Assembly (NCBI GenBank): GCA_017479705.1
Contig: JAFVCA010000050.1
Span: 3,385-67,384, forward strand
Source of the DNA: Bacteroidales bacterium
Lineage (GTDB): Bacteria > Bacteroidota > Bacteroidia > Bacteroidales > P3
DNA: 64,000 nt
Direction: 5' to 3'
Shown here piece after piece: positions 3,201 through 31,001 of this stretch (within the stretch, counting starts at the first letter, position 1; each line of letters starts with the position of its first letter). The position numbers and the translations under genes were made by a program. The notes beneath the pieces were generated by a model. It was given only the letters and a program-made list of their open reading frames with translations, ran no database searches and was not told where the DNA came from.

Positions 3201-3210
3201 GCCGCAACAG

Positions 3211-3284
3211 TGATTCCGCTGCGATTCGAACGCAGGACCTACTGCTTAGAAGGCAGTTGCTCTATCCAGCTGAGCTACGGAACC
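3211..3284 (-). tRNA. tRNA-Arg (anticodon TCT)
   Basis: Reverse complement is GGTTCCGTAGCTCAGCTGGATAGAGCAACTGCCTTCTAAGCAGTAGGTCCTGCGTTCGAATCGCAGCGGAATCA. It folds as a cloverleaf with anticodon loop CTTCTAA and T-arm CTGCG-TTCGAAT-CGCAG. Confidence 0.9.
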
Positions 3285-3299
3285 ATTGTGTTCCTTCCG

Positions 3300-3374
3300 T
3301 CGGGATAGCCTGATTCGAACAGGCGATCTCCTGCTCCCAAAGCAGGCGCGCTAACCGGACTACGCCATATCCCG
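3300..3374 (-). tRNA. tRNA-Pro (anticodon TGG)
   Basis: Reverse complement is CGGGATATGGCGTAGTCCGGTTAGCGCGCCTGCTTTGGGAGCAGGAGATCGCCTGTTCGAATCAGGCTATCCCGA. Anticodon loop TTTGGGA. Acceptor stem CGGGATA/TATCCCG. Confidence 0.9.
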
Positions 3375-3421
3375 TTGCCTTTAAGAAAAAAGACGCCTCG
3401 TGGACGTCTCTCTCTCTTTCT

Positions 3422-3512
3422 TGGCGGAGAAGGGGGGATTCGAACCCCCGGTACCCTAATCGAGTACGACAGTTTAGCAAACTGTTGGTTTCAGCCACTC
3501 ACCCACCTCTCC
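3422..3512 (-). tRNA. tRNA-Ser (anticodon GCT), class II with long variable arm, CCA encoded
   Basis: Reverse complement is GGAGAGGTGGGTGAGTGGCTGAAACCAACAGTTTGCTAAACTGT...GGGGGTTCGAATCCCCCCTTCTCCGCCA. Anticodon loop TTGCTAA. Confidence 0.9.
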
Positions 3513-15958: not shown

Positions 15959-15989
15959 TTTTCAATTTTCACCTTTCAATTTTCAATTC
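15959..15989 (+). repeat. Heptamer array (TTTTCAA-type), left flank of the AT-rich island
   Basis: ttttcaattttcacctttcaattttcaattc. It shares tttcaattttcacctttcaattttcaatt with 26529-26565. Confidence 0.9.
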
Positions 15990-16081
15990 AAAAAAGCTAT
16001 GATTCGCCCCCGCAACCCTCAGTCAAATACATGATAATAAATCAATAATAAAAAACCTTTTTTGGATTGGAATATTTTTTG

Positions 16082-16141: not shown

Positions 16142-17221
16142 ATGATGGACGGATTCAAAAACATAGAGATAAAGAATTTCAGGGGCATCGACCACCTGAA
16201 AATAGAGGATTTTGGGCGTGTCAACATCTTCCTCGGACAGAACAGTTCGGGCAAAAGCTCCGTATTGGAGGCTGTCAACCTCTCCTTGAACATGTCGAAT
16301 CCCGACATGCCGCAGGTAATAAACAATATTCGTGCCCGCAAGTCGTTCAGCACATTCTTGGATGCAAAATACCTTTTCCACAATCTGGACATGTCCAACC
16401 CTCCAGACCTGACGTTGGAGCAAACCGATGGCACGGTGCGGCATCTGACCCTGGGGATGACTTATGTCTTTGATGAATTGGCAGAGCCCAAGAATGAACC
16501 CATCCAGCAAGCGGGAACAATAGTCTATGTAAACACGCTGGAGATAACCTTCAGCACAACTGCCCAGGGGGAAAAGCAAGACTACAAAAGCTGGCTGCGC
16601 ATCAACCCTGCCGGTATTGTAGTCAACCGGAAGATTGCGGACAACTACTTAGAGAGACTGAGAGGGAGGGTGATTTCTGCTGATCTGACCTCCGACAACA
16701 CCGTATGGGATTTGGCTGAACTCTTTAAACGGAACCAGAAGAACATCGTTTTGTCCACATTGAAGCTATTCGATGCCCGGATCAATAGCATCGAAATCCT
16801 TAACGATGATGTATACATCGGTTTTGACGGCATGGCAGAGATGCTCCCATCGCGCATGACAGGCGACGGTCTGAGGCGATATCTGAGTATTGCCGCAAGC
16901 GCAGCCAACCCTATGATGCACATTATCATGCTGGATGAGATAGACAACGGCTTGCACTATTCTGCATACAAAAAACTCTGGGAAGCCCTTTTCATTCTGG
17001 CTGTAGGAACCAACAAACAGCTGTTCGTCACCACCCACAGCAAAGAGACACTATACAGTTTGAGCGAGATGCTGGAAGAACACGCCGAATATAGAAACGA
17101 GCTAAGCTTGTACACGCTGGAGCAGACAAAACTCAAAGGGCACCAGGCCTACAAGTACACCTACGAAGGCCTGTCGGGTGCTTGCGAGAATGATGTGGAA
17201 ATTAGAAGCATGGTTAAATAA
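16142..17221 (+). CDS. ABC-type / AAA_21-like ATPase (SMC/RecF-like, no nuclease domain visible)
   Basis: 359 aa. Walker A GQNSSGKSS, signature-like MTGDGLRR, Walker B IIMLDEIDNGLH, H-loop FVTTHSKE. Confidence 0.85.
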   Translation: MMDGFKNIEIKNFRGIDHLKIEDFGRVNIFLGQNSSGKSSVLEAVNLSLNMSNPDMPQVINNIRARKSFSTFLDAKYLFHNLDMSNPPDLTLEQTDGTVRHLTLGMTYVFDELAEPKNEPIQQAGTIVYVNTLEITFSTTAQGEKQDYKSWLRINPAGIVVNRKIADNYLERLRGRVISADLTSDNTVWDLAELFKRNQKNIVLSTLKLFDARINSIEILNDDVYIGFDGMAEMLPSRMTGDGLRRYLSIAASAANPMMHIIMLDEIDNGLHYSAYKKLWEALFILAVGTNKQLFVTTHSKETLYSLSEMLEEHAEYRNELSLYTLEQTKLKGHQAYKYTYEGLSGACENDVEIRSMVK

Positions 17222-17229
17222 TAACATGA

Positions 17230-18177
17230 ATGAAAACACAATCCTATTTTAACTATATTGAAGAACGCCTCACTTGGCTTTCAACTAGAATTACTTCGAG
17301 AGGGGCGCTAAACATGTATGACATCAATATACATTGCGAAGACTTCTATATGCGTTTGCTGAATCTTCTTTACGGATGGGATTTAGTAAATGCCAACACC
17401 ATTCAGCGGAATAATCCAGCCGTTGACTTGATTTATACGTCGGAAAATATAATCGTTCAGGTTTCATCGACAAACACTACCACTAAAATCCAGTCTTCAC
17501 TGGATAAATTAGATGCCAAATATACTGGCTGTAATTATAAATTTGTCTCTATTGCAAAGTCCACTGACAAACTTAAAGAACACAAGTTCAACACACCTTC
17601 AAATCTCAACATACAATTTAATGCACCCTATGATATCTATGATATTAATACTCTGTTGAATAAAATCAAATCTCTATCCGCAGCGGAAATGGAAGAGGTT
17701 TATAAGTTTATTAAACAAGAACTACATTTTGAAACAGATGAATTGAAACTTGAAACCGGACTTGCTCACGTAATAAACGAACTTTCAGAGATTAAATTAG
17801 AGAATAATGAAGAGAAGTTCGATACTGTTTCTTTCGATATTGATAATAAAATTATAAAAAACAATCTTGCTGTTTTTAAGGACATTATCGAACAATATGA
17901 TGTATATTTCTATGTTGTGCAAAGAATCTATGATGAGTTTGACACGATGGGGAATAATAAAAGTTACGCTGTCCTTCAGACTATCAGAAAAGAGTATTTA
18001 GAATTAAAAACGAAATTCTCTGGCGATGAATTGTATAAAGCCATTGCACAAAATGTCAAAGAAAAATTATCTTTGAGTGCGAATCTGAAACAGTTTTATG
18101 ATGATGATTTAGAATTATATGTTGATATCATTTTAGTTGATGCATTCATTGAATGCAAGATTTTCGAAAAACCCTAA
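17230..18177 (+). CDS. ABC-3C effector component, SMEK-like N-terminal domain
   Basis: 315 aa. FNYIEERLTWLSTRITSRGALNMYDINIHCEDFYMRLLNLLYGWDLVNANTIQRNNPAVDLIYTSENIIVQVSST matches my recollection of SMEK-domain proteins. Gene order is effector, small ORF, then DUF2326 ATPase. Confidence 0.6.
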   Translation: MKTQSYFNYIEERLTWLSTRITSRGALNMYDINIHCEDFYMRLLNLLYGWDLVNANTIQRNNPAVDLIYTSENIIVQVSSTNTTTKIQSSLDKLDAKYTGCNYKFVSIAKSTDKLKEHKFNTPSNLNIQFNAPYDIYDINTLLNKIKSLSAAEMEEVYKFIKQELHFETDELKLETGLAHVINELSEIKLENNEEKFDTVSFDIDNKIIKNNLAVFKDIIEQYDVYFYVVQRIYDEFDTMGNNKSYAVLQTIRKEYLELKTKFSGDELYKAIAQNVKEKLSLSANLKQFYDDDLELYVDIILVDAFIECKIFEKP

Positions 18178-18183
18178 TTAATC

Positions 18184-18408
18184 ATGCTATTGCCAGACAA
18201 TATTCGACCAGAGAACAGTGTATACTACAATGGGGCCTTTGTATTACAAGTACTCCAAAAATCGGGTGATATGCACATGTTTGATTTATACTCAAAAGTT
18301 TCTGAGATTGTACAAATTAGTTTTTCCTTATATTTACTATGTCTTGATTGGCTGTACTTAATCAATGTGGCAAAAATAGAAGGAGAGGAGGTCATATTAT
18401 GTTTATAA
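18184..18408 (+). CDS. ABC-3C middle component (small helical protein)
   Basis: 74 aa. Starts 6 nt after the effector stop and overlaps the ATPase start by 10 nt (ATGTTTATAA). Size and position fit the middle-component family. Confidence 0.55.
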   Translation: MLLPDNIRPENSVYYNGAFVLQVLQKSGDMHMFDLYSKVSEIVQISFSLYLLCLDWLYLINVAKIEGEEVILCL

Positions 18409-20102
18409 AATCATTAACCATTTACAATGACAATGGTGTTATTCGAGAAATTCCTTTTCACCAAGGTCTCAACCTCATTGTTGATAATACACCCAACGCC
18501 ACAACCGAAACTGGAAACAATGTCGGAAAAACAACGGTGCTAAAGTTAGTGGATTTTTGTTTGGGCAAAGATGCCGGTATAATTTATTCAGACCCTGCAA
18601 ATCCCAAAGTGGAACATAAAAATGTCAAGGAATTTCTGATTAATACAAATGTTGTCATTGAACTAATTCTAACAACTGATTTTGAAAGAAGAGATGTCGT
18701 TATTAAACGGAATTTCAAAAATCGCTCGAATGCTATTCGAGAGATAAATGGCGTTAATATTACAAATGAAGAAGATTATCCACAAGTTTTAGAACAAGCC
18801 ATTTGGGGGATTGAAAGTGACAAGCCTACATTCCGTCAAATCATTTCTCATAACATTCGCTATTCTGACCAAAATGTTTCGAATGTTTTAAAAACCCTGA
18901 ATCCATACACCTCTGATACAGAGTACGAATCTTTGTATCTATTCATGTTCGGTTGTAATTTCGAACATGGGAGTATCCGTCATCAAACATTGGAAAAACT
19001 AAAGGCTGACAAAAATTTCAAGACACGTCTGGAAAAAAGCAATAGCAAAAGTACCTATCTTTCACTTTTAGGACTTGTTGATGCTCGAATCGATGAGTTG
19101 CAAAAAAAGAAAGCCAAATTGAACATCAATCCGAACTTTGCAGCCGATATGGATGCTTTGAATGCCATAAAATATCAAATCAACAATCTAAGTTCTGAAA
19201 TCAGCACAACTCAATTGCGCCATGATATGATTCTTGAGGCGCAACGGGAATCGGAATCTCAAAAAGCAAACATTGACACCGCCCAACTAGCATTGATTTA
19301 CAAGCAAGCCAAAGTACTAATTCCAGATTTACAGCGCACTTTTGAAGAATTGGTCGCATACCACAACCAAATGCTTGACAACAAGGTGGGATTCATTTTG
19401 AAATCTTTGCCACGTATTAAGGAAAAACTTGATTCATTACAAAAAGAATTACGAAACCTGCTCATAAAAGAAGATGCTTTGACACAAAAAGTGGTTAAAT
19501 CCAATACGTATGACGAATTAGAAAATCTCATCAACGAATTAAATCAAAAACACCAAGAAAAGGGTGAATATGAGAATATTATCGAGCAAATAAACACAGT
19601 GGAGAATGAGATATTACAATCAGAAAACGAACTGAGAACCATTGATGACGACTTGTTTTCTGATTCATTTAAGAATCATGTTCAAGAGCAAGTTAACAAA
19701 TTCAATATTTTGTTTTCCCAGATATCCCGCCAAATCTATGACGAAGAATATGTCATTAGATTTGATTCTGTACTAAACAAAAAAACCGGAACTAATATCT
19801 ATAAGTTTTCTTCTTTTAATGCCAATCTTAGTACAGGAAAAAAAATGGGCGAAATATCTTGTTTCGACATTGCTTATACCATGTTCGCACGTCAAGAAAA
19901 CATTCCCCATTTGGATTTTATTTTGAACGATAAGAAAGAATTAATGAGCGACAACCAACTTATCCGTATCTCGAAAATAGTTGAAGAACAAAACATACAA
20001 TTTGTTGCTTCCATATTAAAAGACAAACTTCCTTCTGAAATCAATCAACCTAGACTATTTGTGGTGGAATTATCTCAGGACGACAAACTATTTAGAATCT
20101 AA
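18399..20102 (+). CDS. ABC-3C ABC ATPase (DUF2326 / YydD-like, coiled-coil insert)
   Basis: Start moved to the ATG at 18399 (MFIKSLTIYN), which is preceded by aggagaggagg. Walker A TGNNVGKTT, long central coiled coil, signature-like LSTGKK, Walker B-like LDFILND. Confidence 0.7.
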   Translation: MFIKSLTIYNDNGVIREIPFHQGLNLIVDNTPNATTETGNNVGKTTVLKLVDFCLGKDAGIIYSDPANPKVEHKNVKEFLINTNVVIELILTTDFERRDVVIKRNFKNRSNAIREINGVNITNEEDYPQVLEQAIWGIESDKPTFRQIISHNIRYSDQNVSNVLKTLNPYTSDTEYESLYLFMFGCNFEHGSIRHQTLEKLKADKNFKTRLEKSNSKSTYLSLLGLVDARIDELQKKKAKLNINPNFAADMDALNAIKYQINNLSSEISTTQLRHDMILEAQRESESQKANIDTAQLALIYKQAKVLIPDLQRTFEELVAYHNQMLDNKVGFILKSLPRIKEKLDSLQKELRNLLIKEDALTQKVVKSNTYDELENLINELNQKHQEKGEYENIIEQINTVENEILQSENELRTIDDDLFSDSFKNHVQEQVNKFNILFSQISRQIYDEEYVIRFDSVLNKKTGTNIYKFSSFNANLSTGKKMGEISCFDIAYTMFARQENIPHLDFILNDKKELMSDNQLIRISKIVEEQNIQFVASILKDKLPSEINQPRLFVVELSQDDKLFRI

Positions 20103-20116
20103 ATGAAGAAGTATTT

Positions 20117-21154
20117 ATGGCAGAGGAATATAAATATAAGGGTATCGACCTATTCTGTGGGATTGGAGGATTCCGTTTAGCGATGGAGGATAATAATGTT
20201 GACTGTGTCTTTTCGTCCGATATTGACCAATTTGCACAGCAAACATATCAAGCTAATTTTGGAGAAATCCCCGCTGGAGATATCACAAAAATTAGGGCTG
20301 CGGATATTCCAAAGTTTGATATTCTGGCAGCAGGTTTTCCTTGCCAGCCATTCAGCTATGCAGGACTTGGAAAAGGTTTCGAAGACAAGACACGAGGCAC
20401 ACTTTTCTTTGAAATATGCCGGATTTTGTCTTATCATAAACCCAAAATGTTTTTTTTGGAAAATGTGAAAGGGCTTGTTTCTCATAGAAACGGGGAAACC
20501 CTTTCTACTATTCTCTCATCGTTACAAGAGTTAGGATATGATGTTCATTGGAAAGTATTAAGCTCTTTAGATTATGGACTTCCTCAAAAAAGAGAACGTT
20601 GGTACTGTGTCGGTTTTGACAAGAAAACGACATTCCAATGGCCTGATAAAGTAAAGGGCAATCCAACTTTAAGAGATATTATTGATTTATCAGATGATAA
20701 CAAATCACTCAAACTTAGCAAGTTTGAAATGGACCGCATTGAATACCACTTTGCACATTGCAAGCAACAAGAAAGAGTACAACATGATAATTCAAAATAC
20801 AAACCTAATACAAAAAAAGGAAAATATGGTATCTTTTCATTCCAAAAACCTGACGGCTCATTGAGATTTCATGTAGGAGATGTGGCAAAAACCCAAATAC
20901 AAGAAGCATTCTATGCATGTTTAGACACATATGCACCAACCATAATAGCCGGAAGAACTCCTAAACTCTGGGATATTGGCAGAAAGCTTTCTATTCTTGA
21001 AGCAAAACGCTTACAGGGCTTCCCCGATGACTTTGTTATGCCGGTTTCCGATGTACAGGCATATAAGCAACTGGGGAACTCCGTCAGCGTGCCTATCATC
21101 AAGAAAATTATGAAAAATATGATTAAGGCATACGAAAATACAAACGAGAAATGA
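20117..21154 (+). CDS. dcm: DNA (cytosine-5)-methyltransferase
   Basis: 345 aa. Motif I DLFCGIGGF, motif IV GFPCQPFS, motif VI ENVKGL, motif VIII QKRERWYCVG, motif X GNSVSVP. Confidence 0.95.
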   Translation: MAEEYKYKGIDLFCGIGGFRLAMEDNNVDCVFSSDIDQFAQQTYQANFGEIPAGDITKIRAADIPKFDILAAGFPCQPFSYAGLGKGFEDKTRGTLFFEICRILSYHKPKMFFLENVKGLVSHRNGETLSTILSSLQELGYDVHWKVLSSLDYGLPQKRERWYCVGFDKKTTFQWPDKVKGNPTLRDIIDLSDDNKSLKLSKFEMDRIEYHFAHCKQQERVQHDNSKYKPNTKKGKYGIFSFQKPDGSLRFHVGDVAKTQIQEAFYACLDTYAPTIIAGRTPKLWDIGRKLSILEAKRLQGFPDDFVMPVSDVQAYKQLGNSVSVPIIKKIMKNMIKAYENTNEK

Positions 21155-22941
21155 AGTATTTTGATGTTAAAACTGTAGTAAATGCATACAATGGCTTTCA
21201 AGATTGTATGACAAATAAATCTTGGGGTTATCTTGCTCTACTAAAAGGAAGTAAAAGTAGTGTCCACCCTTCAACCCCATACGAAGTTGACTTGAATATA
21301 GTTTCCAACTTCTTAGAAGATATATTCAATTTGTCCCAATCAAAAAAAGAATATGAAGGAGGACGATTTCTATACGTAGTCTTTTCAAACAAATGGGACA
21401 AATATTTTAATGACCAAGGTAAATATATTCCTAATATTTATGATATAATTGTTTGGGCTTATCGTAGAAGAAGTTTTCCTGATAGTATCACTGAAGACCA
21501 TCTCCTTAATTTATTTTCGAACGATTTTAATATACCAACCAATGTAATACAAAATAGTTTCAACACAAAAAAGAAGTTTCTGTCTTTTGCTGACTCATTA
21601 TATTCAGAGAATGATTTAAAATCAGAATTAGGGAGAATTGGGGTTGACGTTTCTAAGAATAATATTGATGCAAAAAAACAAGCCATTGTTGCTGCTCCCG
21701 GAGAAATAAGCAGAGGGCCTTTTATTCAAACATTGTATGCGGGATTGGATATAACAGATTATGTAATAATATTACAATCAAACTACTATTCCCTATATGG
21801 TGCTGAAGAGACAAAAAGTAGTGATAAGAAAAAATACTCGACAGACAATACTCTTACTAGTTTATTTCTGACAAATGAAGTCTTTTCTTCAATCAAGTCT
21901 ACCGGTCTCATATATTCTGATACTCTTATCAAGCGCCTTGCCTTTTCGCTGATGGCTAAGCCTTTTGTTATCCTGAGTGGTTTGGCTGGGTCCGGGAAGA
22001 CGCAGTTGGCGTTGGCTTTTGCCAAATGTATGAGCAAGAATATTGAGGAGCAGGTTTGCACGGTTTCCATCGGGGCGGATTGGACGAACCGCGAGCCATT
22101 GCTGGGTTATCCCAATGCATTGAGAAGCGGCGAGTATGTGATGCCGGAAAGTGGCGTACTGCAATTGCTGATGCGTGCTGAATACGATCCCGCCAAGCCC
22201 TATTTCCTGATTCTTGACGAGATGAACCTCAGCGTGGTGGAACGTTACTTTGCCGATTTCCTCAGCGCTATGGAGTCAGGGGAGAAAATCAAACTCTGGG
22301 ATGGTGGTGAGGAGGTCCCTTCAGAAATATCGCTCCCCAAGAATGTTTTTGTCATCGGCACTATCAATGTGGACGAAACCACTTATATGTTCAGCCCCAA
22401 GGTGCTCGACCGCGCCAATGTGATTGAGTTCAAGATTGCACCAGAGGAGATGGAGCATTATCTAAACGAGAAGAAAGACATCCACCTTGAAAAGGCCTAC
22501 TCGGCCTGCGCTGATATGGCTGTGGATTTTGTGGAGAAAGCAAAGACCCAGATTGAGATAAAGAATGAAGGGGAAAAAGAAATTCTGCTCTCGTTCTTCA
22601 AGGAATTGAAACAGGTCAATGCTGAGTTTGGCTACCGCACGGTGAATGAAATATGCCGTTACCTCCACTTTGCTGGTGAAGATAAGGACGGACTACAGAG
22701 TGACGAAGCCATTGACACCGCCATCTTGCAAAAACTACTCCCCAAGCTGCATGGTTCCCGGAAGAAACAGGTGCCCGTGCTAACTGCCATGTGGAAACTT
22801 TGCCTGAAAGACGGCGCTGCCAAAGAAATAGATGCTGAGTATGACGTGACCGATTTCAAATATCCTGAGTCGGCCGAGAAGATTCAACGAATGTACCACG
22901 CTGTGGTGGACAACGGATTTACCAGTTTTGCAGAAGCTTAA
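21151..22941 (+). CDS. McrB-like AAA+ (AAA_5) GTPase/ATPase restriction subunit with unassigned N-terminal domain
   Basis: 596 aa. ATGA overlap with the dcm stop. Walker A GLAGSGKT, Walker B YFLILDEMN, GTINVDETT...LDRANVIEF is typical of the McrB/LlaJI.R1 family. Residues 1 to ~270 are unrecognised. Confidence 0.8.
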   Translation: MKYFDVKTVVNAYNGFQDCMTNKSWGYLALLKGSKSSVHPSTPYEVDLNIVSNFLEDIFNLSQSKKEYEGGRFLYVVFSNKWDKYFNDQGKYIPNIYDIIVWAYRRRSFPDSITEDHLLNLFSNDFNIPTNVIQNSFNTKKKFLSFADSLYSENDLKSELGRIGVDVSKNNIDAKKQAIVAAPGEISRGPFIQTLYAGLDITDYVIILQSNYYSLYGAEETKSSDKKKYSTDNTLTSLFLTNEVFSSIKSTGLIYSDTLIKRLAFSLMAKPFVILSGLAGSGKTQLALAFAKCMSKNIEEQVCTVSIGADWTNREPLLGYPNALRSGEYVMPESGVLQLLMRAEYDPAKPYFLILDEMNLSVVERYFADFLSAMESGEKIKLWDGGEEVPSEISLPKNVFVIGTINVDETTYMFSPKVLDRANVIEFKIAPEEMEHYLNEKKDIHLEKAYSACADMAVDFVEKAKTQIEIKNEGEKEILLSFFKELKQVNAEFGYRTVNEICRYLHFAGEDKDGLQSDEAIDTAILQKLLPKLHGSRKKQVPVLTAMWKLCLKDGAAKEIDAEYDVTDFKYPESAEKIQRMYHAVVDNGFTSFAEA

Positions 22942-22955
22942 TAACCGATTGGAGT

Positions 22956-23324
22956 ATGGCAAATGAAATAGTGAAAAAAGAGGTTGCGTTGCCAGATTCG
23001 GAACTGCTGACTCTTGCCGATAGGATTGTACGAGTGATTGAAGAAAGCAGATTGGCCTTAGCCATCAGCATCAATGAGACCATGAAGACAACCTATTGGA
23101 GAATAGGGCAGCATATTGTGGAATTTGAGCAGCAAGGCAATGCCCGCGCCAAATATGGGACATCGCTATTGACTAATCTTGCCAGAATACTCAGGGCAGA
23201 AGTGGGACGCGGATACAGTCGACCCAATCTGAACAATATGCGTAAGTTTTACCTGATGTATCCAAATTTTCAGACATCTGACAAATCCGATTCAATATGT
23301 CAGATGTCTGACAAATTAACCTGA
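22956..23324 (+). CDS. DUF1016_N-only ORF (N-terminal fragment of a YhcG-like PDDEXK nuclease)
   Basis: 122 aa. TYWRIGQHIVEFEQQGNARAKYGTSLLTNLARIL...YSRPNLNNMRKFYLMYP is typical of the YhcG N-terminal domain. The C-terminal PD-(D/E)XK half is absent. Confidence 0.6.
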   Translation: MANEIVKKEVALPDSELLTLADRIVRVIEESRLALAISINETMKTTYWRIGQHIVEFEQQGNARAKYGTSLLTNLARILRAEVGRGYSRPNLNNMRKFYLMYPNFQTSDKSDSICQMSDKLT

Positions 23325-23358
23325 TTACGCAAAATGGTGAAGACGATACTGATGTAGT

Positions 23359-25695
23359 ATGGATAAACCTCTTGAAATACCCATCAACAAACCGGAAGGT
23401 GTAAAACTGATAATATACCCTCTGTCATCGAATGCGAAAGTGTTTGAGGAGGAGCAGGCTGATGATTTGGGTGAAGCGAGATGGCAGCTGGTTGAGGGGG
23501 AGGATTATGAGTATGAGTTTCAAGGTGAGCATGGGCCAGCAGTAGGGTACTACTTTAAAGAGCATGAACTTGTTCGCCCATCAAAAAGTACTCCTTCGCG
23601 AGGGTTGATTAAGACAGGCATCTATGTTGGCTGCCTGACTTTGCCTGTTGCCAATCAATCGGGCTTTGAAACGGAAGTGAGCTTTGAGGTGCGTTCCGTA
23701 AAAGTGGATTACAGGGAGGATTATCGAAGCATGCTTCACGACATCACCAGACACTTTACGGATTTGGTAATGATGCAAGGTGCACCTGTCACACAACGGT
23801 TTGAAGTGGATGTCAATGAAGACGGAAAGACGCTATACCAGCAATTTGCATTTATGAGGTCCTTGGTGGACAGCGAAGGGTTTGAAGAAGCCCTGAACAA
23901 GATATTCTACAATCCTATCCATAAGTGGACAGGGACGACCGTAGAGAAAGACATCTGTGCAGTAAAAAGGCTTGGCCGACACGAAATAAAACAGATTGCA
24001 TCCAGCAAGAACCGACTGCCATTAAGTGATGGCCAGGGTATTGAGAGTGTACCACGCAGACTGAATGTTTCCTATAAGAAAGACACTGTCGATGTAGCTG
24101 AAAACCGTTTCGTAAAATATGTATTGCAATCGTTTGTTTCGTTTTGCAGCACCATCCAGCAATGCGACAACGCCAGCCCGAGACTGAAAAACGAGGCTGA
24201 GCTAACAGCCAAGAAACTGACAGGATGGCTTAGCCGCAGTTTCTTCCTTGAGGTGGCTAACCTGCAGGTCATGACACTGAACAGTCCTGCATTGCAAAGG
24301 AAAGACGGCTACAGGGAAGTGTTACAAGCCTGGATGATGTCAAAACTGGCAGCACATATAACGTGGAAAGGCGGCGACAATGTTTATCGGGCTGGAATGC
24401 GTAATGTGGCTGCACTATACGAGTATTGGGTATTCTTCAAGTTGCTTGACATAGTCAAAGAGGCATTCCATCTGGAACTAACAGAAGCAGATGAGAAGAA
24501 GTTGGTAAAAACCGACAAGGACAACATCAATCTTGAACTCAGACAAGGCCGCATGACAATGGTAGGTGGGGAGTTCCATGAAGCCTCCCGCACATTGAAA
24601 GTCAAACTGTATTATAATAGAACTTTCAAGGGGTCAAGTCAGTTATATGGTAGCGGTTCATGGACGACCGACATGCGGCCAGACTACACTTTATCAATTT
24701 GGCCTGGAAATATCAAAGAGACCGAAGCAGAAGAACAAGACCTCATCGTTCATATACATTTTGACGCAAAGTACAAGTTGGACAGAATTCTGCTTAATGA
24801 CAAAGACATCGATGAAATTCATACTTTCAATGATAGTGACGATGAAGACCTGACCGAAGATGAGCTGATTATGAATCAAGAGAAACTTGAGGCGGAAAAA
24901 GGCATTTACAAACGGGTAGATCTGCTTAAGATGCATGCTTACAAAGATGCAATCCGTCGCACCAGCGGGGCATACATTCTTTATCCCGGCACAGAAAACA
25001 AAAGACTCAGAGGTTTTCATGAAGTGTTACCTGGATTGGGAGCGTTCTGTCTCAGTCCAGACAGATTTGAACAAGATTCAAAGGAGATAGAACACTTCTT
25101 GCATGACATATTAGAGCACATGCTCAACAGAGCATCACAGCGTGAGCGTATGGCATATCATACTTATGAAATCCTCAAAGATGAGCCTTTGATGGTTTGT
25201 GAATCCTTGCCAGAGCCATATGGTGATAATCGTAATTTAATTCCGGAGGAGACTTTTGTGTTAATGGGTTCATTTCGCGACGAGAATCATTTGAAGTGGA
25301 TACTCAAAAACAAGATCTATAATACCAGAACAGGGACAAAGAACGGCTCCTTGAGATTGAAACAAGAAATCACAACAGCGAAATATGTCTTACTTCATAG
25401 TGATAGTAAACAACTCATGCTGAGGTTGGGCAACAAAGGTCCTCGAGTGATGTCGAAAGCGGTCTTGGAAAAAATGCCTTATTCTAGTTTGTACTCTCCA
25501 AACTCGGACTATTATGTTGTTTTTGATATCGCTAACGCAGAACCTGAAAAAGAGTTTAAGAATGTCCAATGGAATATCTACAAAATGGGTCAGGACGGGA
25601 TAATAAAACAAGGCCCTTTGAGTGCCGAGCCAGTAGGAGTGTCCTTGGCAACTTTAATGAAATACGTAATAAAAGAATACCCAAACACAGAATAA
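23359..25695 (+). CDS. McrC-like / DUF2357 PD-(D/E)XK restriction nuclease subunit with C-terminal extension
   Basis: 778 aa. Nuclease core MRPDYTLSIW ... HIHFDAKYK ... MHAYKDAIRRTSGAYILYPG follows the McrC-type D..(D/E)xK pattern. The last ~190 aa are unassigned. Confidence 0.7.
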   Translation: MDKPLEIPINKPEGVKLIIYPLSSNAKVFEEEQADDLGEARWQLVEGEDYEYEFQGEHGPAVGYYFKEHELVRPSKSTPSRGLIKTGIYVGCLTLPVANQSGFETEVSFEVRSVKVDYREDYRSMLHDITRHFTDLVMMQGAPVTQRFEVDVNEDGKTLYQQFAFMRSLVDSEGFEEALNKIFYNPIHKWTGTTVEKDICAVKRLGRHEIKQIASSKNRLPLSDGQGIESVPRRLNVSYKKDTVDVAENRFVKYVLQSFVSFCSTIQQCDNASPRLKNEAELTAKKLTGWLSRSFFLEVANLQVMTLNSPALQRKDGYREVLQAWMMSKLAAHITWKGGDNVYRAGMRNVAALYEYWVFFKLLDIVKEAFHLELTEADEKKLVKTDKDNINLELRQGRMTMVGGEFHEASRTLKVKLYYNRTFKGSSQLYGSGSWTTDMRPDYTLSIWPGNIKETEAEEQDLIVHIHFDAKYKLDRILLNDKDIDEIHTFNDSDDEDLTEDELIMNQEKLEAEKGIYKRVDLLKMHAYKDAIRRTSGAYILYPGTENKRLRGFHEVLPGLGAFCLSPDRFEQDSKEIEHFLHDILEHMLNRASQRERMAYHTYEILKDEPLMVCESLPEPYGDNRNLIPEETFVLMGSFRDENHLKWILKNKIYNTRTGTKNGSLRLKQEITTAKYVLLHSDSKQLMLRLGNKGPRVMSKAVLEKMPYSSLYSPNSDYYVVFDIANAEPEKEFKNVQWNIYKMGQDGIIKQGPLSAEPVGVSLATLMKYVIKEYPNTE

Positions 25696-25774: not shown

Positions 25775-26392
25775 ATGACCGACACGATGACACCGGAGCA
25801 GCGGCATCGCTGCATGTCGCACATACGCAGCCGCGACACCAAGCCTGAGCTGCGGGTGCGGCGTTGGCTGTGGAGCCATGGCTACCGCTACCGGCTGAAT
25901 GTGAAGAGCGTGCCGGGCAAGCCGGACATCGTCATGCGGCCTTATCGCACGGCGATATTTGTCAACGGATGCTTTTGGCATGGGCACGGCGTGGAAATTG
26001 AAAATTCAAAATTGAAAAGTGAAAAGGTTGTGGACTCCAGTGCTGCACAGATTGAGAACTCCGCATGCTGCAAGATTCCACAGACCAACCGGGAGTTCTG
26101 GCTCTCGAAGATCAGACGCAACCAGCAGCGCGACCAGCGCAACTATCGCCTTTTGCAGGAGAACGGTTGGCAGGTCATCGTGGTGTGGGAGTGCCAGCTT
26201 ACGCCCTCTACGATAGAACATACCATGCGCGGCGTGGAGCTGTTGCTCAACGAGAATATGCTCGCCCTCTACAGGCACACTCCCGCCACCTACACCCTTG
26301 CTGACGAGCCTCTCCCCCTCGCCGCTGAAGAAATTGAGCGGAGAACCTCCGCGGGTATTAATCTTAATGACTATCCGCATCATTCCGAATAG
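25775..26392 (+). CDS. vsr: Very short patch repair endonuclease Vsr, carrying an in-frame repeat insertion
   Basis: SRDTKPELRVRRWL, FVNGCFWHGH, IPQTNREFWLSKIRRNQQRD, IVVWECQL. GC-rich like the backbone. Confidence 0.9.
   Translation: MTDTMTPEQRHRCMSHIRSRDTKPELRVRRWLWSHGYRYRLNVKSVPGKPDIVMRPYRTAIFVNGCFWHGHGVEIENSKLKSEKVVDSSAAQIENSACCKIPQTNREFWLSKIRRNQQRDQRNYRLLQENGWQVIVVWECQLTPSTIEHTMRGVELLLNENMLALYRHTPATYTLADEPLPLAAEEIERRTSAGINLNDYPHHSE
25994..26026 (+). repeat. Heptamer array (TTGAAAA orientation) inside vsr
   Basis: gaaattgaaaattcaaaattgaaaagtgaaaag, translated as EIENSKLKSEK. Confidence 0.85.
26338..26352 (+). repeat. 15-nt GC hairpin repeat GCGGAGAACCTCCGC (inside the vsr 3' end)
   Basis: Exact copy. 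Translated as ERRTSAG, the same peptide as at the PnuC C-terminus. Confidence 0.9.
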
Positions 26393-26418
26393 GCCTTGGA
26401 GAGGCTTAATCCTATTAA

Positions 26419-26457
26419 CCCCAGAGTGCGAAAATCTCCGATTTTCGCACTCTGGGG
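26419..26457 (+). terminator. 18-bp perfect hairpin downstream of vsr
   Basis: ccccagagtgcgaaaatc-tcc-gattttcgcactctgggg. Confidence 0.6.
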
Positions 26458-26528
26458 CTAAGACAGCTATACCATTCGGCGTCCCGGAGAGACGCGACTT
26501 TAACACTTCGGTTCCTTGCGGATAATCG

Positions 26529-26565
26529 TTTCAATTTTCAATTTTCACCTTTCAATTTTCAATTG
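26529..26565 (+). repeat. Heptamer array (TTTTCAA-type), right flank of island + vsr
   Basis: tttcaattttcaattttcacctttcaattttcaattg. Confidence 0.9.
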
Positions 26566-26743
26566 AACCGCCCTTCTTCTGTAGATGTTCTCTCTGTATA
26601 TTGCTGTTCAGAGACAATGCAGAGTCGAAGTGGAAAGTAAGCAGAAAAAAAGTAGAAAGAATGACGGGAGGCCGATACTGGTTTTCCGTAATTTGTGTAG
26701 TTTTTCCCGCAAAATGTACAAGCGTTGATTGCAGGGTTTTGTG

Positions 26744-28564: not shown

Positions 28565-28631
28565 AACGGCTGCAAAGGTACATATTTTCTCCGACATGGC
28601 ACACAAAAATTTGTAGTTTCAAAAAAAGTTG

Positions 28632-28639
28632 TATCTTTG
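28632..28639 (+). promoter_or_regulatory. -7 box TAtcTTTG upstream of the TPP riboswitch
   Basis: tatctttg lies about 25 nt before the riboswitch. Confidence 0.5.
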
Positions 28640-28661
28640 CACCATCGTTCCGAGCGGAGGA

Positions 28662-28738
28662 ACTCGTTTAGGGGTGCTGCAACTTGTTGTGGCTGAGATT
28701 ACACCCTCGAACCTGATCCGGATAATGCCGGCGGAGGA
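28662..28738 (+). promoter_or_regulatory. TPP (THI-box) riboswitch
   Basis: AGGGGTGC...GGCTGAGATTACACCCTCGAACCTGATCCGGATAATGCCGGCGGAGGAA matches the TPP aptamer consensus (CUGAGA, ACCUGAUCyGGAUAAUGCCrGCG). Confidence 0.9.
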
Positions 28739-28745
28739 AAAGACT

Positions 28746-31001
28746 ATGAGAACAAACAAATACCTTTGTGGCCGCTATCAATACCGGGCCACCCGTCCCA
28801 ATGCCAAGCAGATGATAGCCTGCTGTGCATTGTCAGCAACCCTATTGTGTGGCATCAGTGCCAATGCTCAGTCGCGTGACACCACGCGCACCCTTGATGA
28901 GGTGATTGTGCAGGATGTGCGCGTCAGCAACAAAGCGCCCCTCACCACCACCACCGTCACTGCCGACCAGCTGCAAGATGCCCGTGGCAGCGTGAGTATC
29001 CCCTACATCCTCGAGACCCAGCCCTCAGTGGTGGCTTCGGGCGAGAACGGCACCGTGGGAGCTACCTCGTTGCGCATCCGTGGTGTGGATGCCAGCCGTA
29101 TTAACGTCAACATCAACGGCATCACACTCAACGACCCTGAAAGCCAGGAGGTCTTCTGGTACAATATCCCCAACCTTGGCGGCATGGCTCACAGCTTCCA
29201 GATTCAGCGCGGTGTGGGTTCGTCCACAGGCGGCAGCCCTGCTTTCGGTGCCGCCATCAACATGCAGACGCTCAACGCCAAGGGCAAACCCTACGGCAGT
29301 GCCGACTTGGGTTTTGGCAGCTGGAACACCCGCCAGTATAGCATCAGCGGCGGGACGGGCATCATGAAGAGTGGCCTCAGTTTCGACTTTGCCTACAGCG
29401 GCTTGAACAGCGACGGCTATGTGCGCGGCGGCGGTGCCGACCAGCAGAGTCTCTTCGGCAGCCTGTCGTGGTATGGCGAAAGAACCCTCATCAAACTCCT
29501 TGCCATCGTCGGCAGTCAGACCACAGGTATCACCTGGGACGGTGCCGACAGCGCACAGCTCAATGCCGACCCCACCTACAACCCCTCCGGCGAGTACTAC
29601 ATGGACGGCAACGTGATGTACTACCCCAAAGAGACCGACAACTACTGGCAGCAGCACTACCAGCTCTACCTCTCCCACCTGCTCACCGACCGCTGGAGCA
29701 TCAAGGGCATTGTCAACTTCACCCACGGCGACGGCTACTATGAGCAGTACAAAGCCGAAAAGAAATACTCCAAGTATGGCATTGAGCAAAGCGGCAAGAC
29801 CGACTTCGTCACCCGTAAGTTGATGGACAACAACAGCATCACCGCCAATCTGGCCGCCAACTACAATGGCGAGAAACTCACCCTCTCGTTCGGCGACAAT
29901 ATGCTTTACTTCAACGGCTACCACTTTGGCAACGTCATCTGGGTGCGCGACACTGCTTGCCACCTCCCCAAGACCTTTGAGTGGTACCGCTACCAAGGCA
30001 CCAAGACGGACAACAGTGTTTACGCCAAGGCCACGTATGACTTCAACCCCAGCCTCAACGCCTATGCCGACCTCCAGCTGCGCACCGTAAACTACAAACT
30101 GCGCGGCATTACGGACGACCTCGACAACCTCGACTTCAACGAGAACTACCTCTTCTTCAACCCCAAGGCCGGTATCAACTACCGCATTGACGACCACCAG
30201 CGCACCTACTTTGTGGCCGGCATCAGCAACCGCGAACCCACCCGCAGCGACATCAAGGATGCCCTTGCCCACGGCGACACCGTCAAGGCCGAGACCATGC
30301 TCGACTTAGAGCTGGGCTACCAGATTGCCCGCAACCGCTGGAGTTTCTCCGCCAACCTCTATGCCATGCTCTACAAAGACCAGCTCACCCCCAACGGCCG
30401 CATCAGCTCCAGTGGCTACTCCCTTATGGAGAACGTGGACCGCAGCTACCGTCTCGGCATCGAGCTGCAAGGCGGCTACCAGATCGCCCGCTGGTTCCGC
30501 ATGGATGCCAACCTCACCCTCAGCACCAACAAGGTGCTCAATTACACCTACAGCCTCTTCAACGACGGCGACAGCGTCGTCCTCAACCCCGACGGCACCT
30601 GGAGCACCCTCGATGTCACCGCCAACACACCGTTAGCCTTCTCGCCCTCCGTCATTGGAGCTGCCATCGCCACCTTCACCCCCTTCAGCGGGGCCAAGTT
30701 GCAGCTCATCGGCAAATATGTAGGCAAGCAGTATGCCGACAACACCGGCCGCGAGTGCTACGCCCTCAACCCCTACTTCCTCCTCAACCTGCGCGCCTCC
30801 TACACCTGGAACCTCCGCAGCGGCAACCAAATCGAGGCCCAGCTCACCGTCAACAACCTGTTAGACCACCGCTACCGCCTCAGCGCCTGGGTGGGCGACT
30901 GGTATGACGAAACCGAAACAGCCCAATACTACTACCACAGCAGAGGCTGGCTCCAGCAGCCCGGCCGCAACTTCATGGCCCGGCTGATCTACAGCTTCTA
31001 A
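28746..31001 (+). CDS. TonB-dependent outer-membrane receptor (thiamine-regulated)
   Basis: The ORF track start at 28629 would read through the riboswitch, so the ATG at 28746 (MRTNKYL) is used. Plug region DEVIVQD...TADQL. Terminal ...ARLIYSF. Confidence 0.85.
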   Translation: MRTNKYLCGRYQYRATRPNAKQMIACCALSATLLCGISANAQSRDTTRTLDEVIVQDVRVSNKAPLTTTTVTADQLQDARGSVSIPYILETQPSVVASGENGTVGATSLRIRGVDASRINVNINGITLNDPESQEVFWYNIPNLGGMAHSFQIQRGVGSSTGGSPAFGAAINMQTLNAKGKPYGSADLGFGSWNTRQYSISGGTGIMKSGLSFDFAYSGLNSDGYVRGGGADQQSLFGSLSWYGERTLIKLLAIVGSQTTGITWDGADSAQLNADPTYNPSGEYYMDGNVMYYPKETDNYWQQHYQLYLSHLLTDRWSIKGIVNFTHGDGYYEQYKAEKKYSKYGIEQSGKTDFVTRKLMDNNSITANLAANYNGEKLTLSFGDNMLYFNGYHFGNVIWVRDTACHLPKTFEWYRYQGTKTDNSVYAKATYDFNPSLNAYADLQLRTVNYKLRGITDDLDNLDFNENYLFFNPKAGINYRIDDHQRTYFVAGISNREPTRSDIKDALAHGDTVKAETMLDLELGYQIARNRWSFSANLYAMLYKDQLTPNGRISSSGYSLMENVDRSYRLGIELQGGYQIARWFRMDANLTLSTNKVLNYTYSLFNDGDSVVLNPDGTWSTLDVTANTPLAFSPSVIGAAIATFTPFSGAKLQLIGKYVGKQYADNTGRECYALNPYFLLNLRASYTWNLRSGNQIEAQLTVNNLLDHRYRLSAWVGDWYDETETAQYYYHSRGWLQQPGRNFMARLIYSF

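Follow-up and report, generated by a model that had tools for sequence, protein, structure and literature searches.

Do three tightly packed genes of an uncultured Bacteroidales bacterium form a complete defence operon, and to which of the known kinds would such an operon belong? The genes are situated at positions 17230-20102 of the DNA stretch analyzed here (the window): 64,000 nt of contig JAFVCA010000050.1 (positions 3,385 to 67,384 of the forward strand) from the GenBank assembly GCA_017479705.1. They code for a 315-aa effector, a 74-aa middle component and a 567-aa ATPase of the ATP-binding cassette (ABC) type, all co-directional on the + strand. A first-pass annotation, made from the sequence alone, had described the trio as an ABC three-component (ABC-3C) conflict system. 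We conclude that the trio very probably represents an intact defence operon of the 'short' type II Lamassu (= ABC-3C) kind, namely of its SMEK-CTD10 / MC6 / DUF2326 subtype, working by the sequestration and release of a nuclease as proposed below. A system of this kind is already described, catalogued and routinely annotated.

Domain composition and classification

The Pfam matches of all three proteins were above the curated cut-offs. The protein product of the first open reading frame (ORF1, 17230-18177) matched SMEK_N at residues 9-147 (17254..17670; 1.6e-38 in Pfam and 4.1e-32 in NCBIfam) and, C-terminal to it, the helical domain CTD10 at residues 178-313 (17761..18168; 1.9e-20 in Pfam, 74.2 bits with the cut-off at 28.1). 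We characterized this protein as an LmuA-like effector, with a SMEK nuclease head at the N-terminus and CTD10 at the C-terminus. The product of ORF2 (18184-18408) matched MC6 (1.4e-22 in Pfam, 79.9 bits with the cut-off at 27.2), the family of an LmuC-like middle component. The product of ORF3 (18399-20102), with an intact Walker A motif and a helical insertion, matched DUF2326 at its C-terminus (2.6e-17 in Pfam). A SMEK-type effector, a tiny middle component and a DUF2326 coiled-coil ATPase were what the first-pass annotation had named, and the models it had suggested searching (SMEK, the ABC-3C C-terminal domain, the ABC-3C middle component and DUF2326) were all matched above cut-offs. The three-gene architecture proposed there was found in each of its parts: effector, middle component and ATPase in this order, CTD10 behind a variable head, a known middle-component family and an ATPase with a coiled-coil insertion.

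It is known from reviews and structural papers that ABC-3C, type II Lamassu (LmuA-LmuC-LmuB) and DdmABC of Vibrio cholerae belong to the same superfamily. The view that the class had been little characterized should therefore be given up; type II Lamassu/DdmABC has been the subject of phage and plasmid assays and of several cryo-electron microscopy (cryo-EM) structures of 2025. According to Haudiquet et al. 2025 (PNAS; bioRxiv 10.1101/2025.04.02.646746), SMEK, HNH and lipase are LmuA effector domains specific to 'short' Lamassu, with LmuB of ~600 aa, and the window operon falls into this category with its SMEK effector and is not known to differ from it. Li et al. defined a short, diverged sub-family by LmuA with CTD6-12, LmuC with MC2-8 and a smaller LmuB (~600 aa). 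Since CTD10, MC6 and the 567-aa ATPase fit the definition of Li et al., we assigned the window operon to the short sub-family.

Gene starts and junctions

The ORF listing reproduced exactly the gene positions of the first-pass annotation, along with the spacing of 6 nt between ORF1 and ORF2 (18178-18183) and the 10 nt shared by ORF2 and ORF3 (18399-18408, + strand), where the stop of the MC6 gene and the start of the ATPase gene are combined in ATGTTTATAA. For ORF3 the listing also contained a longer alternative with a TTG start at 18348. All 78 of the related loci, across phyla, had an in-frame start codon at the position of the 10-nt overlap (ATG in 76 and GTG in 2); for this reason we took 18399, an ATG giving 567 aa, as the true start. 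The tight coupling of genes suggested earlier was borne out by the spacing and by the conservation of the overlap in these 78 loci, and the overlap itself is consistent with translational coupling of the MC6 and ATPase genes. The first junction showed another distribution in relatives, with a 14-nt overlap at 64 loci and a gap of 3-6 nt only in the close relatives of the window.

In the public gene call for a scaffold identical in sequence to this region of the window (ENA ERZ28654847 scaffold_329; our locus L081), the gene of the 74-aa MC6 was omitted and the effector was started at an internal Met, with a length of 287 aa rather than 315 aa. As the N-terminus of the effector is conserved from M1 among homologs, we preferred the 315-aa start. 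All three ORFs are full length, and the invariant residues that we checked are present: E37, D66, Q77 and K86 of the effector as well as the Walker A, signature and D-K-K-E motifs of the ATPase.

Conservation and spread of the trio

In a pattern scan covering 185,579 species, each represented by a single genome, we obtained 249 loci encoding a relative, and synteny was analyzed in the best 80 of them. These 80 loci came from Bacteroidota, Planctomycetota, Pseudomonadota, Bacillota, Acidobacteriota, Nitrospinota, Chloroflexota and methanogenic archaea. We observed an MC6 homolog of 74-76 aa straight after the effector in 79 of the 80 loci (the remaining locus ends at a contig edge), with the ATPase next in order in 78. 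The first-pass annotation would have been abandoned by its author if homologs of the three genes were not syntenic in other genomes; synteny holds in 78-79 of the 80 loci. Such recurrence in independent genomes, together with the matches to all four expected Pfam models, goes far beyond what chance would give. Furthermore, pairwise divergences of the proteins are correlated (2,701 locus pairs; rho=0.92 for effector versus ATPase, 0.65-0.70 for MC6 versus either), which indicates that the trio has been inherited as a unit.

Human-gut and other metagenomes contain homologs of the ATPase with 57% identity, and these were again encoded 3' of SMEK-CTD10 and MC6. Different effector heads had been expected next to ATPases of such identity (~57%); this expectation failed for both homologs, at all three places examined (L110, L111 and L112 carry SMEK-CTD10 and MC6), and head swapping became apparent only at greater distance. 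Full-length relatives are present on several plasmids, including pCLJ of Clostridium botulinum, where the RefSeq names of the trio are 'ABC-three component system protein', 'ABC-three component system middle component 6' and 'DUF2326 domain-containing protein'. In the phage collection we found no copy of full length.

Immediately upstream of the trio there is an AbiLi-like AAA_15/AAA_21 ATPase gene (16142-17221, + strand; PADLOC AbiLi 3.6e-60, PDC-M38A 4.2e-42), and one could think of a four-gene system in which this ATPase is a functional partner of the trio, e.g. a second sensor. The gene ends 8 nt 5' of the effector gene on the same strand; its product is full length with respect to the PADLOC AbiLi model, yet the usual AbiLii partner is missing, with no trace of AbiLii/PDC-M38B anywhere in the window. 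The same abutting arrangement, also partner-less, exists in L006, and in the gut contigs L112 and L113 an AAA_15/21 ATPase is located upstream of the SMEK trio. In L112 and L113, however, that ATPase retains its 224-aa partner, and two transposase genes separate it from the trio. A homolog of the AbiLi-like ATPase was observed in just 4 of the 80 loci and is adjacent on the same strand only in L006; in L037 it is on the opposite strand and keeps an AbiLii/PDC-M38B-like partner of its own (219 aa). C. botulinum pCLJ and L110 have the trio alone, without the AbiLi-like ATPase. With the arrangement not conserved among the 80 loci we rejected the AbiLi-like ATPase as a fourth component and consider a four-gene system very unlikely. 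Homologs of the downstream genes, from Dcm to Vsr, accompany the trio in just one or two other loci of the 80. As neither the AbiLi-like ATPase nor the downstream genes are conserved partners, the unit was delimited as the three genes at 17230-20102.

Some of the related loci are in decay. The ATPase is in pieces at L021 (7174-8890) and L078 (7174-8885); at L023 the ATPase is absent and the middle gene is disrupted; at L006 (3905-4853) two ORFs take the place of a single effector gene.

The trio of the window could likewise be a decaying or silent remnant, a cassette which no longer functions in its host. Besides the fragmentation, loss and splitting of genes in relatives, the eroded state of the neighbours is compatible with this idea: the AbiLi-like gene without a partner, a DUF1016_N fragment within a McrBC-like pair and an in-frame insert in vsr. 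The trio itself shows no such erosion; all three ORFs are full length, the checked invariant residues are in place, and the overlap and the start codon within it are intact. We regard decay of this particular copy as very unlikely, and continue to treat it as an intact operon.

The SMEK-CTD10 effector

The AlphaFold2 (AF2) model of the effector has a mean predicted local distance difference test (pLDDT) value of 86.6, with an alpha/beta fold in the head and nothing but helices in the C-terminal domain (within 177-307). In 51 homologs, down to 30% identity, the head residues N28, E37, N45, N56, D66, Q77 and K86 do not vary, while V78 and S79 are each conserved in at least 90%. In the model the conserved residues map to helix 30-48, to strands 67-69 and 74-79 and to helix 84-92. 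A PD-(D/E)XK core would have its elements in this predicted order; here the third of them carries QxS, and the Lys has shifted to the next helix. The candidate catalytic core would be made of E37, D66, Q77-V78-S79 and K86 (17338..17487), as suggested by conservation among homologs.

In a search of the PDB with a profile of the effector family we observed one strong match, 26bh_D ('Mrr domain from Kordia jejudonensis Mrr-APAZ pAgo'; E=2.7e-24, residues 2-164), and when this chain is aligned, the E/D/QxS/K columns prove to be conserved in it as well. The PADLOC model 'Aga_REase-PNTD1-PNTD2', a restriction endonuclease (REase) model associated with Argonaute, matched the SMEK head too (6.7e-29). 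Published work treats SMEK as a nuclease domain; other authors use the name Mrr for the domain and SPARMA for the Kordia system. The Kordia jejudonensis heterodimer of SMEK-APAZ and a prokaryotic Argonaute (pAgo) was reported to cut DNA, by guided cleavage of the target in one account and with a weak collateral activity on double-stranded and single-stranded DNA in another. The statement of the first-pass annotation that the activity of SMEK is unknown is superseded by this description, by the cutting of DNA in the Kordia system and by the match to the solved 26bh. We infer that the SMEK_N region is a PD-(D/E)XK/Mrr-like DNase head.

Comparison of folds was less informative. With the full-length effector model as a query, Foldseek found no significant match in the PDB; the best one was YydB of the YydD-YydB model (E=0.039), matches to nucleases of the REase fold were weak (E 0.5-3), and 26bh was not among the PDB matches. 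The use of a two-domain query has probably diluted the score. The nuclease assignment is derived from sequence homology and from the literature, since the Foldseek result for the two-domain model was not significant.

The architecture could be the same while the chemistry of the effector is another: the target of SMEK might be RNA or a particular structure, or the head might only bind, instead of being a non-specific DNase. The QxS motif on the beta-strand in place of (D/E)xK, the Lys moved to the next helix, the weakness of the activity reported for Kordia and the non-significant Foldseek likeness to REase-fold enzymes could all be read in this way. Still, the putative metal-binding residues E37 and D66 are invariant, as is K86; the domain is taken for an Mrr-type nuclease both by those who deposited 26bh and in publications on pAgo; and SMEK occupies the LmuA position that is elsewhere taken by the Cap4, Mrr and HNH DNase heads. 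We think a different chemistry unlikely, and a DNase head remains the preferred reading.

An exhaustive search of representative proteins produced 2,342 clusters of the effector superfamily at E<=1e-3; most of the top matches were SMEK-CTD10 proteins of ~320 aa. Elsewhere the head is fused to NACHT, NB-ARC or AAA_16 plus TPR modules of the STAND type (signal transduction ATPases with numerous domains), to CTD6 and to CTD12. Judging from these fusions, the SMEK head is a portable module, as is expected of a portable immune effector. Among the proteins with SMEK fused to other modules (P0322, P0342, P0329, P0349, P0311 and P0346), P0346 (599 aa) has SMEK, a coiled coil and a C-terminal half of the DUF2326 type in one chain; it may be an effector-ATPase fusion or a mis-joined gene.

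The MC6 middle component

The position of the MC6 gene (18184..18408), between the genes of the effector and the ATPase, and its small size are as in lmuC. A PDB search with the 74-aa protein gave 1tbx as the sole match (E=0.012).

The DUF2326 ATPase

We characterized the product of ORF3 (18399..20102, + strand) as an LmuB-like ABC ATPase of the Rad50/SMC (structural maintenance of chromosomes) type from the DUF2326/YydD family, with evidence coming from Pfam, PADLOC, the AF2 model and Foldseek. Its motifs were analyzed in an alignment of 36 diverse homologs from the fetched loci. In Walker A, G39-N-N-V-G-K44-T-T46 (18513..18536), residues G39, N40, G43, K44, T45 and T46 are invariant. In the ABC signature, L477-S-T-G-K-K482 (19827..19844), the preceding N476 together with G480 and K482 is invariant, S478 and K481 are conserved in at least 90%, and position 477 is variable (L/F/M/H). 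The glutamine of the Q-loop is Q147, and Walker A, the Q-loop and the signature are invariant across the family. Walker B is deviant: in F507-I-L-N-D511-K512-K513-E514 (19917..19940) residues D511, K512, K513 and E514 are invariant, the predicted strand 507-511 terminates at D511, and a Lys is at the position of the catalytic Glu, according to the AF2 model and the alignment. Published LmuB proteins have Gln at this position.

In the AF2 model of the ATPase (pLDDT 76) the alpha/beta head is split, and its two halves are set apart by ~260 residues of predicted long helices; along the chain this insertion comes after Walker A (residues 39-46) and before the signature and Walker B (within 477-514). 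PADLOC gave matches to PDC-M68B (1.8e-33) and to LmuB (8.5e-13 over residues 1-508), and a PHROG of unknown function matches the protein over its full length. The best Foldseek match in the PDB was YydD of Bacillus subtilis (9a6c_A; 4.6e-20, TM-score 0.55), followed by an SMC head with coiled coil and by LmuB of Salmonella (9hqx_B, 9hqu_A and 9hqx_f; 1.7-4.3e-9), with Rad50, condensin, cohesin, Smc5/6, MukB and JetC further down. Plain and profile sequence searches of the PDB produced either nothing or coiled-coil noise, with no LmuB among the matches. Thus, the homology of the ATPase to LmuB is remote, if consistent, and the PADLOC profile and fold comparison were needed to detect it.

The likeness of the fold to the heads of Rad50 and SbcC, as well as the proposed origin of Lamassu from SbcCD (Haudiquet et al. 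2025, bioRxiv 10.1101/2025.04.02.646746; Li et al.), could be taken to indicate a housekeeping role in DNA repair, i.e. end processing of the Rad50/SbcCD kind, rather than immunity. A housekeeping gene set is hardly expected to have the patchy, horizontally transferred distribution that we observed (249 matches among the genomes of 185,579 species, plasmids included). In the window the cassette is located within a low-GC island of restriction and abortive-infection genes and has no phosphoesterase of the Mre11/SbcD type, and the SMEK head is common to STAND and pAgo immune proteins. A role in repair is, in our opinion, extremely unlikely, and immunity is the function that we attribute to the trio.

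Proposed mechanism

Experiments on related systems suggest how the trio may work. In cryo-EM studies of the Salmonella, Vibrio and Bacillus systems, an LmuB dimer and LmuC sequester the C-terminal domain of LmuA; the same work described binding of DNA ends and a tetramer of released LmuA as the active nuclease. The solved LmuC joins the C-terminal domain of LmuA to the coiled coils of LmuB and touches DNA. Millman et al. 2022 demonstrated defence by several operons of the Lamassu family, including one with an Mrr head; the phenotype was abortive infection, and the sites of the ATPase and of the effector were needed along with lmuC.

By analogy, a dimer of the ~570-aa Rad50/SMC-like ATPase (LmuB-like) and the 74-aa MC6 (LmuC-like) would bind and sequester the helical CTD10 of the effector, which would hold the SMEK (Mrr-like PD-(D/E)XK) nuclease monomeric and inactive. 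Upon an encounter of the ATPase complex with aberrant DNA from phage or plasmid replication, e.g. free ends or hairpins, ATP-dependent engagement of the heads would open the complex and free the effector. The freed effector might then oligomerize via CTD10 and degrade DNA indiscriminately, so that the infection would be aborted and the cell lost. The stoichiometry, the sequestration, the DNA-end trigger, the oligomerization and the abortive outcome are all carried over from Lamassu with Cap4-CTD7-MC3; CTD10 may accordingly be seen as a docking and oligomerization module by comparison with the C-terminal domains of LmuA in solved Lamassu complexes. Defence activity of the SMEK-CTD10-MC6 subtype is assumed on the same grounds. 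What the analysis itself shows are the domain identities, the intact motifs, the conserved gene order and close spacing, the common inheritance of the trio, its place in a defence island and the homology of SMEK to a solved nuclease domain.

Several observations weigh against this reading. The searchable literature yielded no experiment on any SMEK-CTD10-MC6 system. In PDB searches we detected no sequence similarity of CTD10 to the C-terminal domains of solved LmuA or of MC6 to solved LmuC, so that their equivalence to these LmuA domains and to LmuC is drawn from position, size and the classification of Pfam and Krishnan et al. 2020. The solved LmuA chains were not retrieved by Foldseek with the full-length effector. 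The QxS motif of SMEK departs from the canonical (D/E)xK, and the collateral activity ascribed to the Kordia system is weak. The ATPase carries Lys in Walker B where the studied LmuB proteins carry Gln, and in the alignment of 36 homologs it lacks the H-loop His and the CxxC zinc hook; with these three features, the handling of ATP and the contacts at the apex of the coiled coil may differ from those of the studied proteins.

The invariant Lys of Walker B (D-K-K-E), the missing H-loop His and zinc hook, and the lack of detectable similarity of MC6 and CTD10 to MC3 and CTD7 also make one think of a mechanistic variant within Lamassu. The ATPase could be a nearly non-hydrolysing, single-use ATP switch, and MC6 with CTD10 might assemble and fire SMEK in a geometry or an oligomer unlike the Cap4 tetramer. 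We consider this possible, on balance rather doubtful. If true, it would be a variant inside Lamassu and no new kind of system.

Comparison with known systems

The closest well-studied counterpart is type II Lamassu LmuACB/DdmABC with Cap4-CTD7-MC3 (V. cholerae and Salmonella enterica). The window operon has in common with it the succession of an effector, a small middle gene and a Rad50/SMC-like ATPase of ~600 aa, the combination of an N-terminal nuclease head with a C-terminal helical domain, and a deviant Walker B. The differences are SMEK instead of Cap4, CTD10 instead of CTD7, MC6 (74 aa) instead of MC3, Lys instead of the Gln of LmuB in Walker B, and the missing CxxC zinc hook of Salmonella LmuB. 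Lamassu-Mrr of Escherichia coli O150:H5 SE15, a validated system acting by abortive infection, with the ATPase site, the effector site and lmuC all needed (Millman et al. 2022), has a PD-(D/E)XK-type (Mrr) nuclease head, a type that is probable for the window effector too. Mrr and SMEK are counted as separate effector classes by Haudiquet et al., and no PADLOC model of LmuA matched the effector of the window.

YydB-YydD of B. subtilis (PDB 9a6c, an integrative model from cross-linking and AI) contains the best structural match to the ATPase, YydD, a member of the same DUF2326/YydD family with only 17% sequence identity to the window protein. YydB, the best though weak match to the effector, is 481 aa long compared with 315 aa, and its head is presumably different. 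We infer from the DUF2326 membership and from the model of the YydD-YydB complex that YydB/YydD is an ABC-3C system.

The Kordia SMEK(Mrr)-APAZ/short pAgo system shares with the window operon a homologous head, held by a sensor and thought to be activated upon the appearance of foreign DNA. Its sensor, however, is a guide-RNA-loaded Argonaute with APAZ, and it has no CTD10, no middle component and no SMC-like ATPase. Rad50-Mre11/SbcCD likewise has a coiled coil inserted into its ABC head and recognizes DNA ends, which for the window operon may be supposed by analogy with Lamassu. The window operon differs from Rad50-Mre11/SbcCD in having neither an Mre11/SbcD nuclease nor a zinc hook and in a far shorter coiled coil; in Lamassu, moreover, the nuclease is released and not retained at the DNA end.

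The trio raises no new question and matters mainly as annotation, i.e. as a Lamassu-family system inside a defence island of an uncultured Bacteroidota metagenome genome, on a contig where the essential 74-aa middle gene escaped automated gene calling and the effector was given a truncated start. The SMEK-CTD10-MC6 subtype is widespread; it would be a suitable subject in which to ask whether sequestration and release extend beyond Cap4-CTD7-MC3 and which role is played by the Lys-type Walker B.

The defence island and other features of the window

The GC content is 34-46% over ~16.0-26.5 kb and roughly 55-60% in the flanks. Downstream of the trio, on the + strand, are the genes of a Dcm-type 5-methylcytosine methyltransferase (20117-21154), of an McrB-like AAA_5 protein (21151-22941; PADLOC PDC-M26A 2.6e-49), which overlaps the Dcm gene by 4 nt, and of a protein with DUF2357 and PDDEXK_7 (23359-25695). 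The region 20117-25695 (Dcm, McrB-like and DUF2357/PDDEXK_7) looks like a methylase-linked restriction module of the McrBC kind. Between the two restriction genes there is an ORF of 122 aa with DUF1016_N only (22956-23324, + strand; PDC-S02 7.2e-33), which ends in a 23-nt inverted repeat (23264-23317).

The low-GC island is flanked by a direct repeat, TTTTCAATTTTCACCTTTCAATTTTCAATT, at 15959-15991 and 26535-26567 (30 nt exact, or 33 nt with 32 of 33 identical; none expected by chance). The motif is heptad-periodic, and exact copies were observed on 27 metagenome contigs that are unrelated and have no flanks in common. We found no empty site and no integrase within the island; given the 27 unrelated contigs, the unshared flanks and the lack of an empty site, the 30-nt repeats are unsupported as attachment (att) sites. 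The repeat looks like a dispersed short element. Rfam gave no family in the island region, and the scan for sigma-70 promoters and terminators was uninformative (the host is one of the Bacteroidota).

The island also contains a vsr homolog of 205 aa (25775-26392). An in-frame insert, 'VEIENSKLKSEKVVDSSAAQIENSA' (~25990-26060), lies between its conserved segments CFWHGH and CKIPQTN and is encoded by an inverted copy (~25992-26029) of the heptad element that flanks the island. Just 3' of vsr there is a near-perfect hairpin of 22 nt (26415-26461; 95% complementary, with a 3-nt loop and no T-run).

Two ordinary features were noted elsewhere in the window: a thiamine pyrophosphate (TPP) riboswitch at 28660-28757 (+ strand, 60.5 bits), upstream of an ORF near 28629-31001, and a cluster of tRNA-Arg(TCT), tRNA-Pro(TGG) and tRNA-Ser(GCT) at 3210-3512 (- strand).

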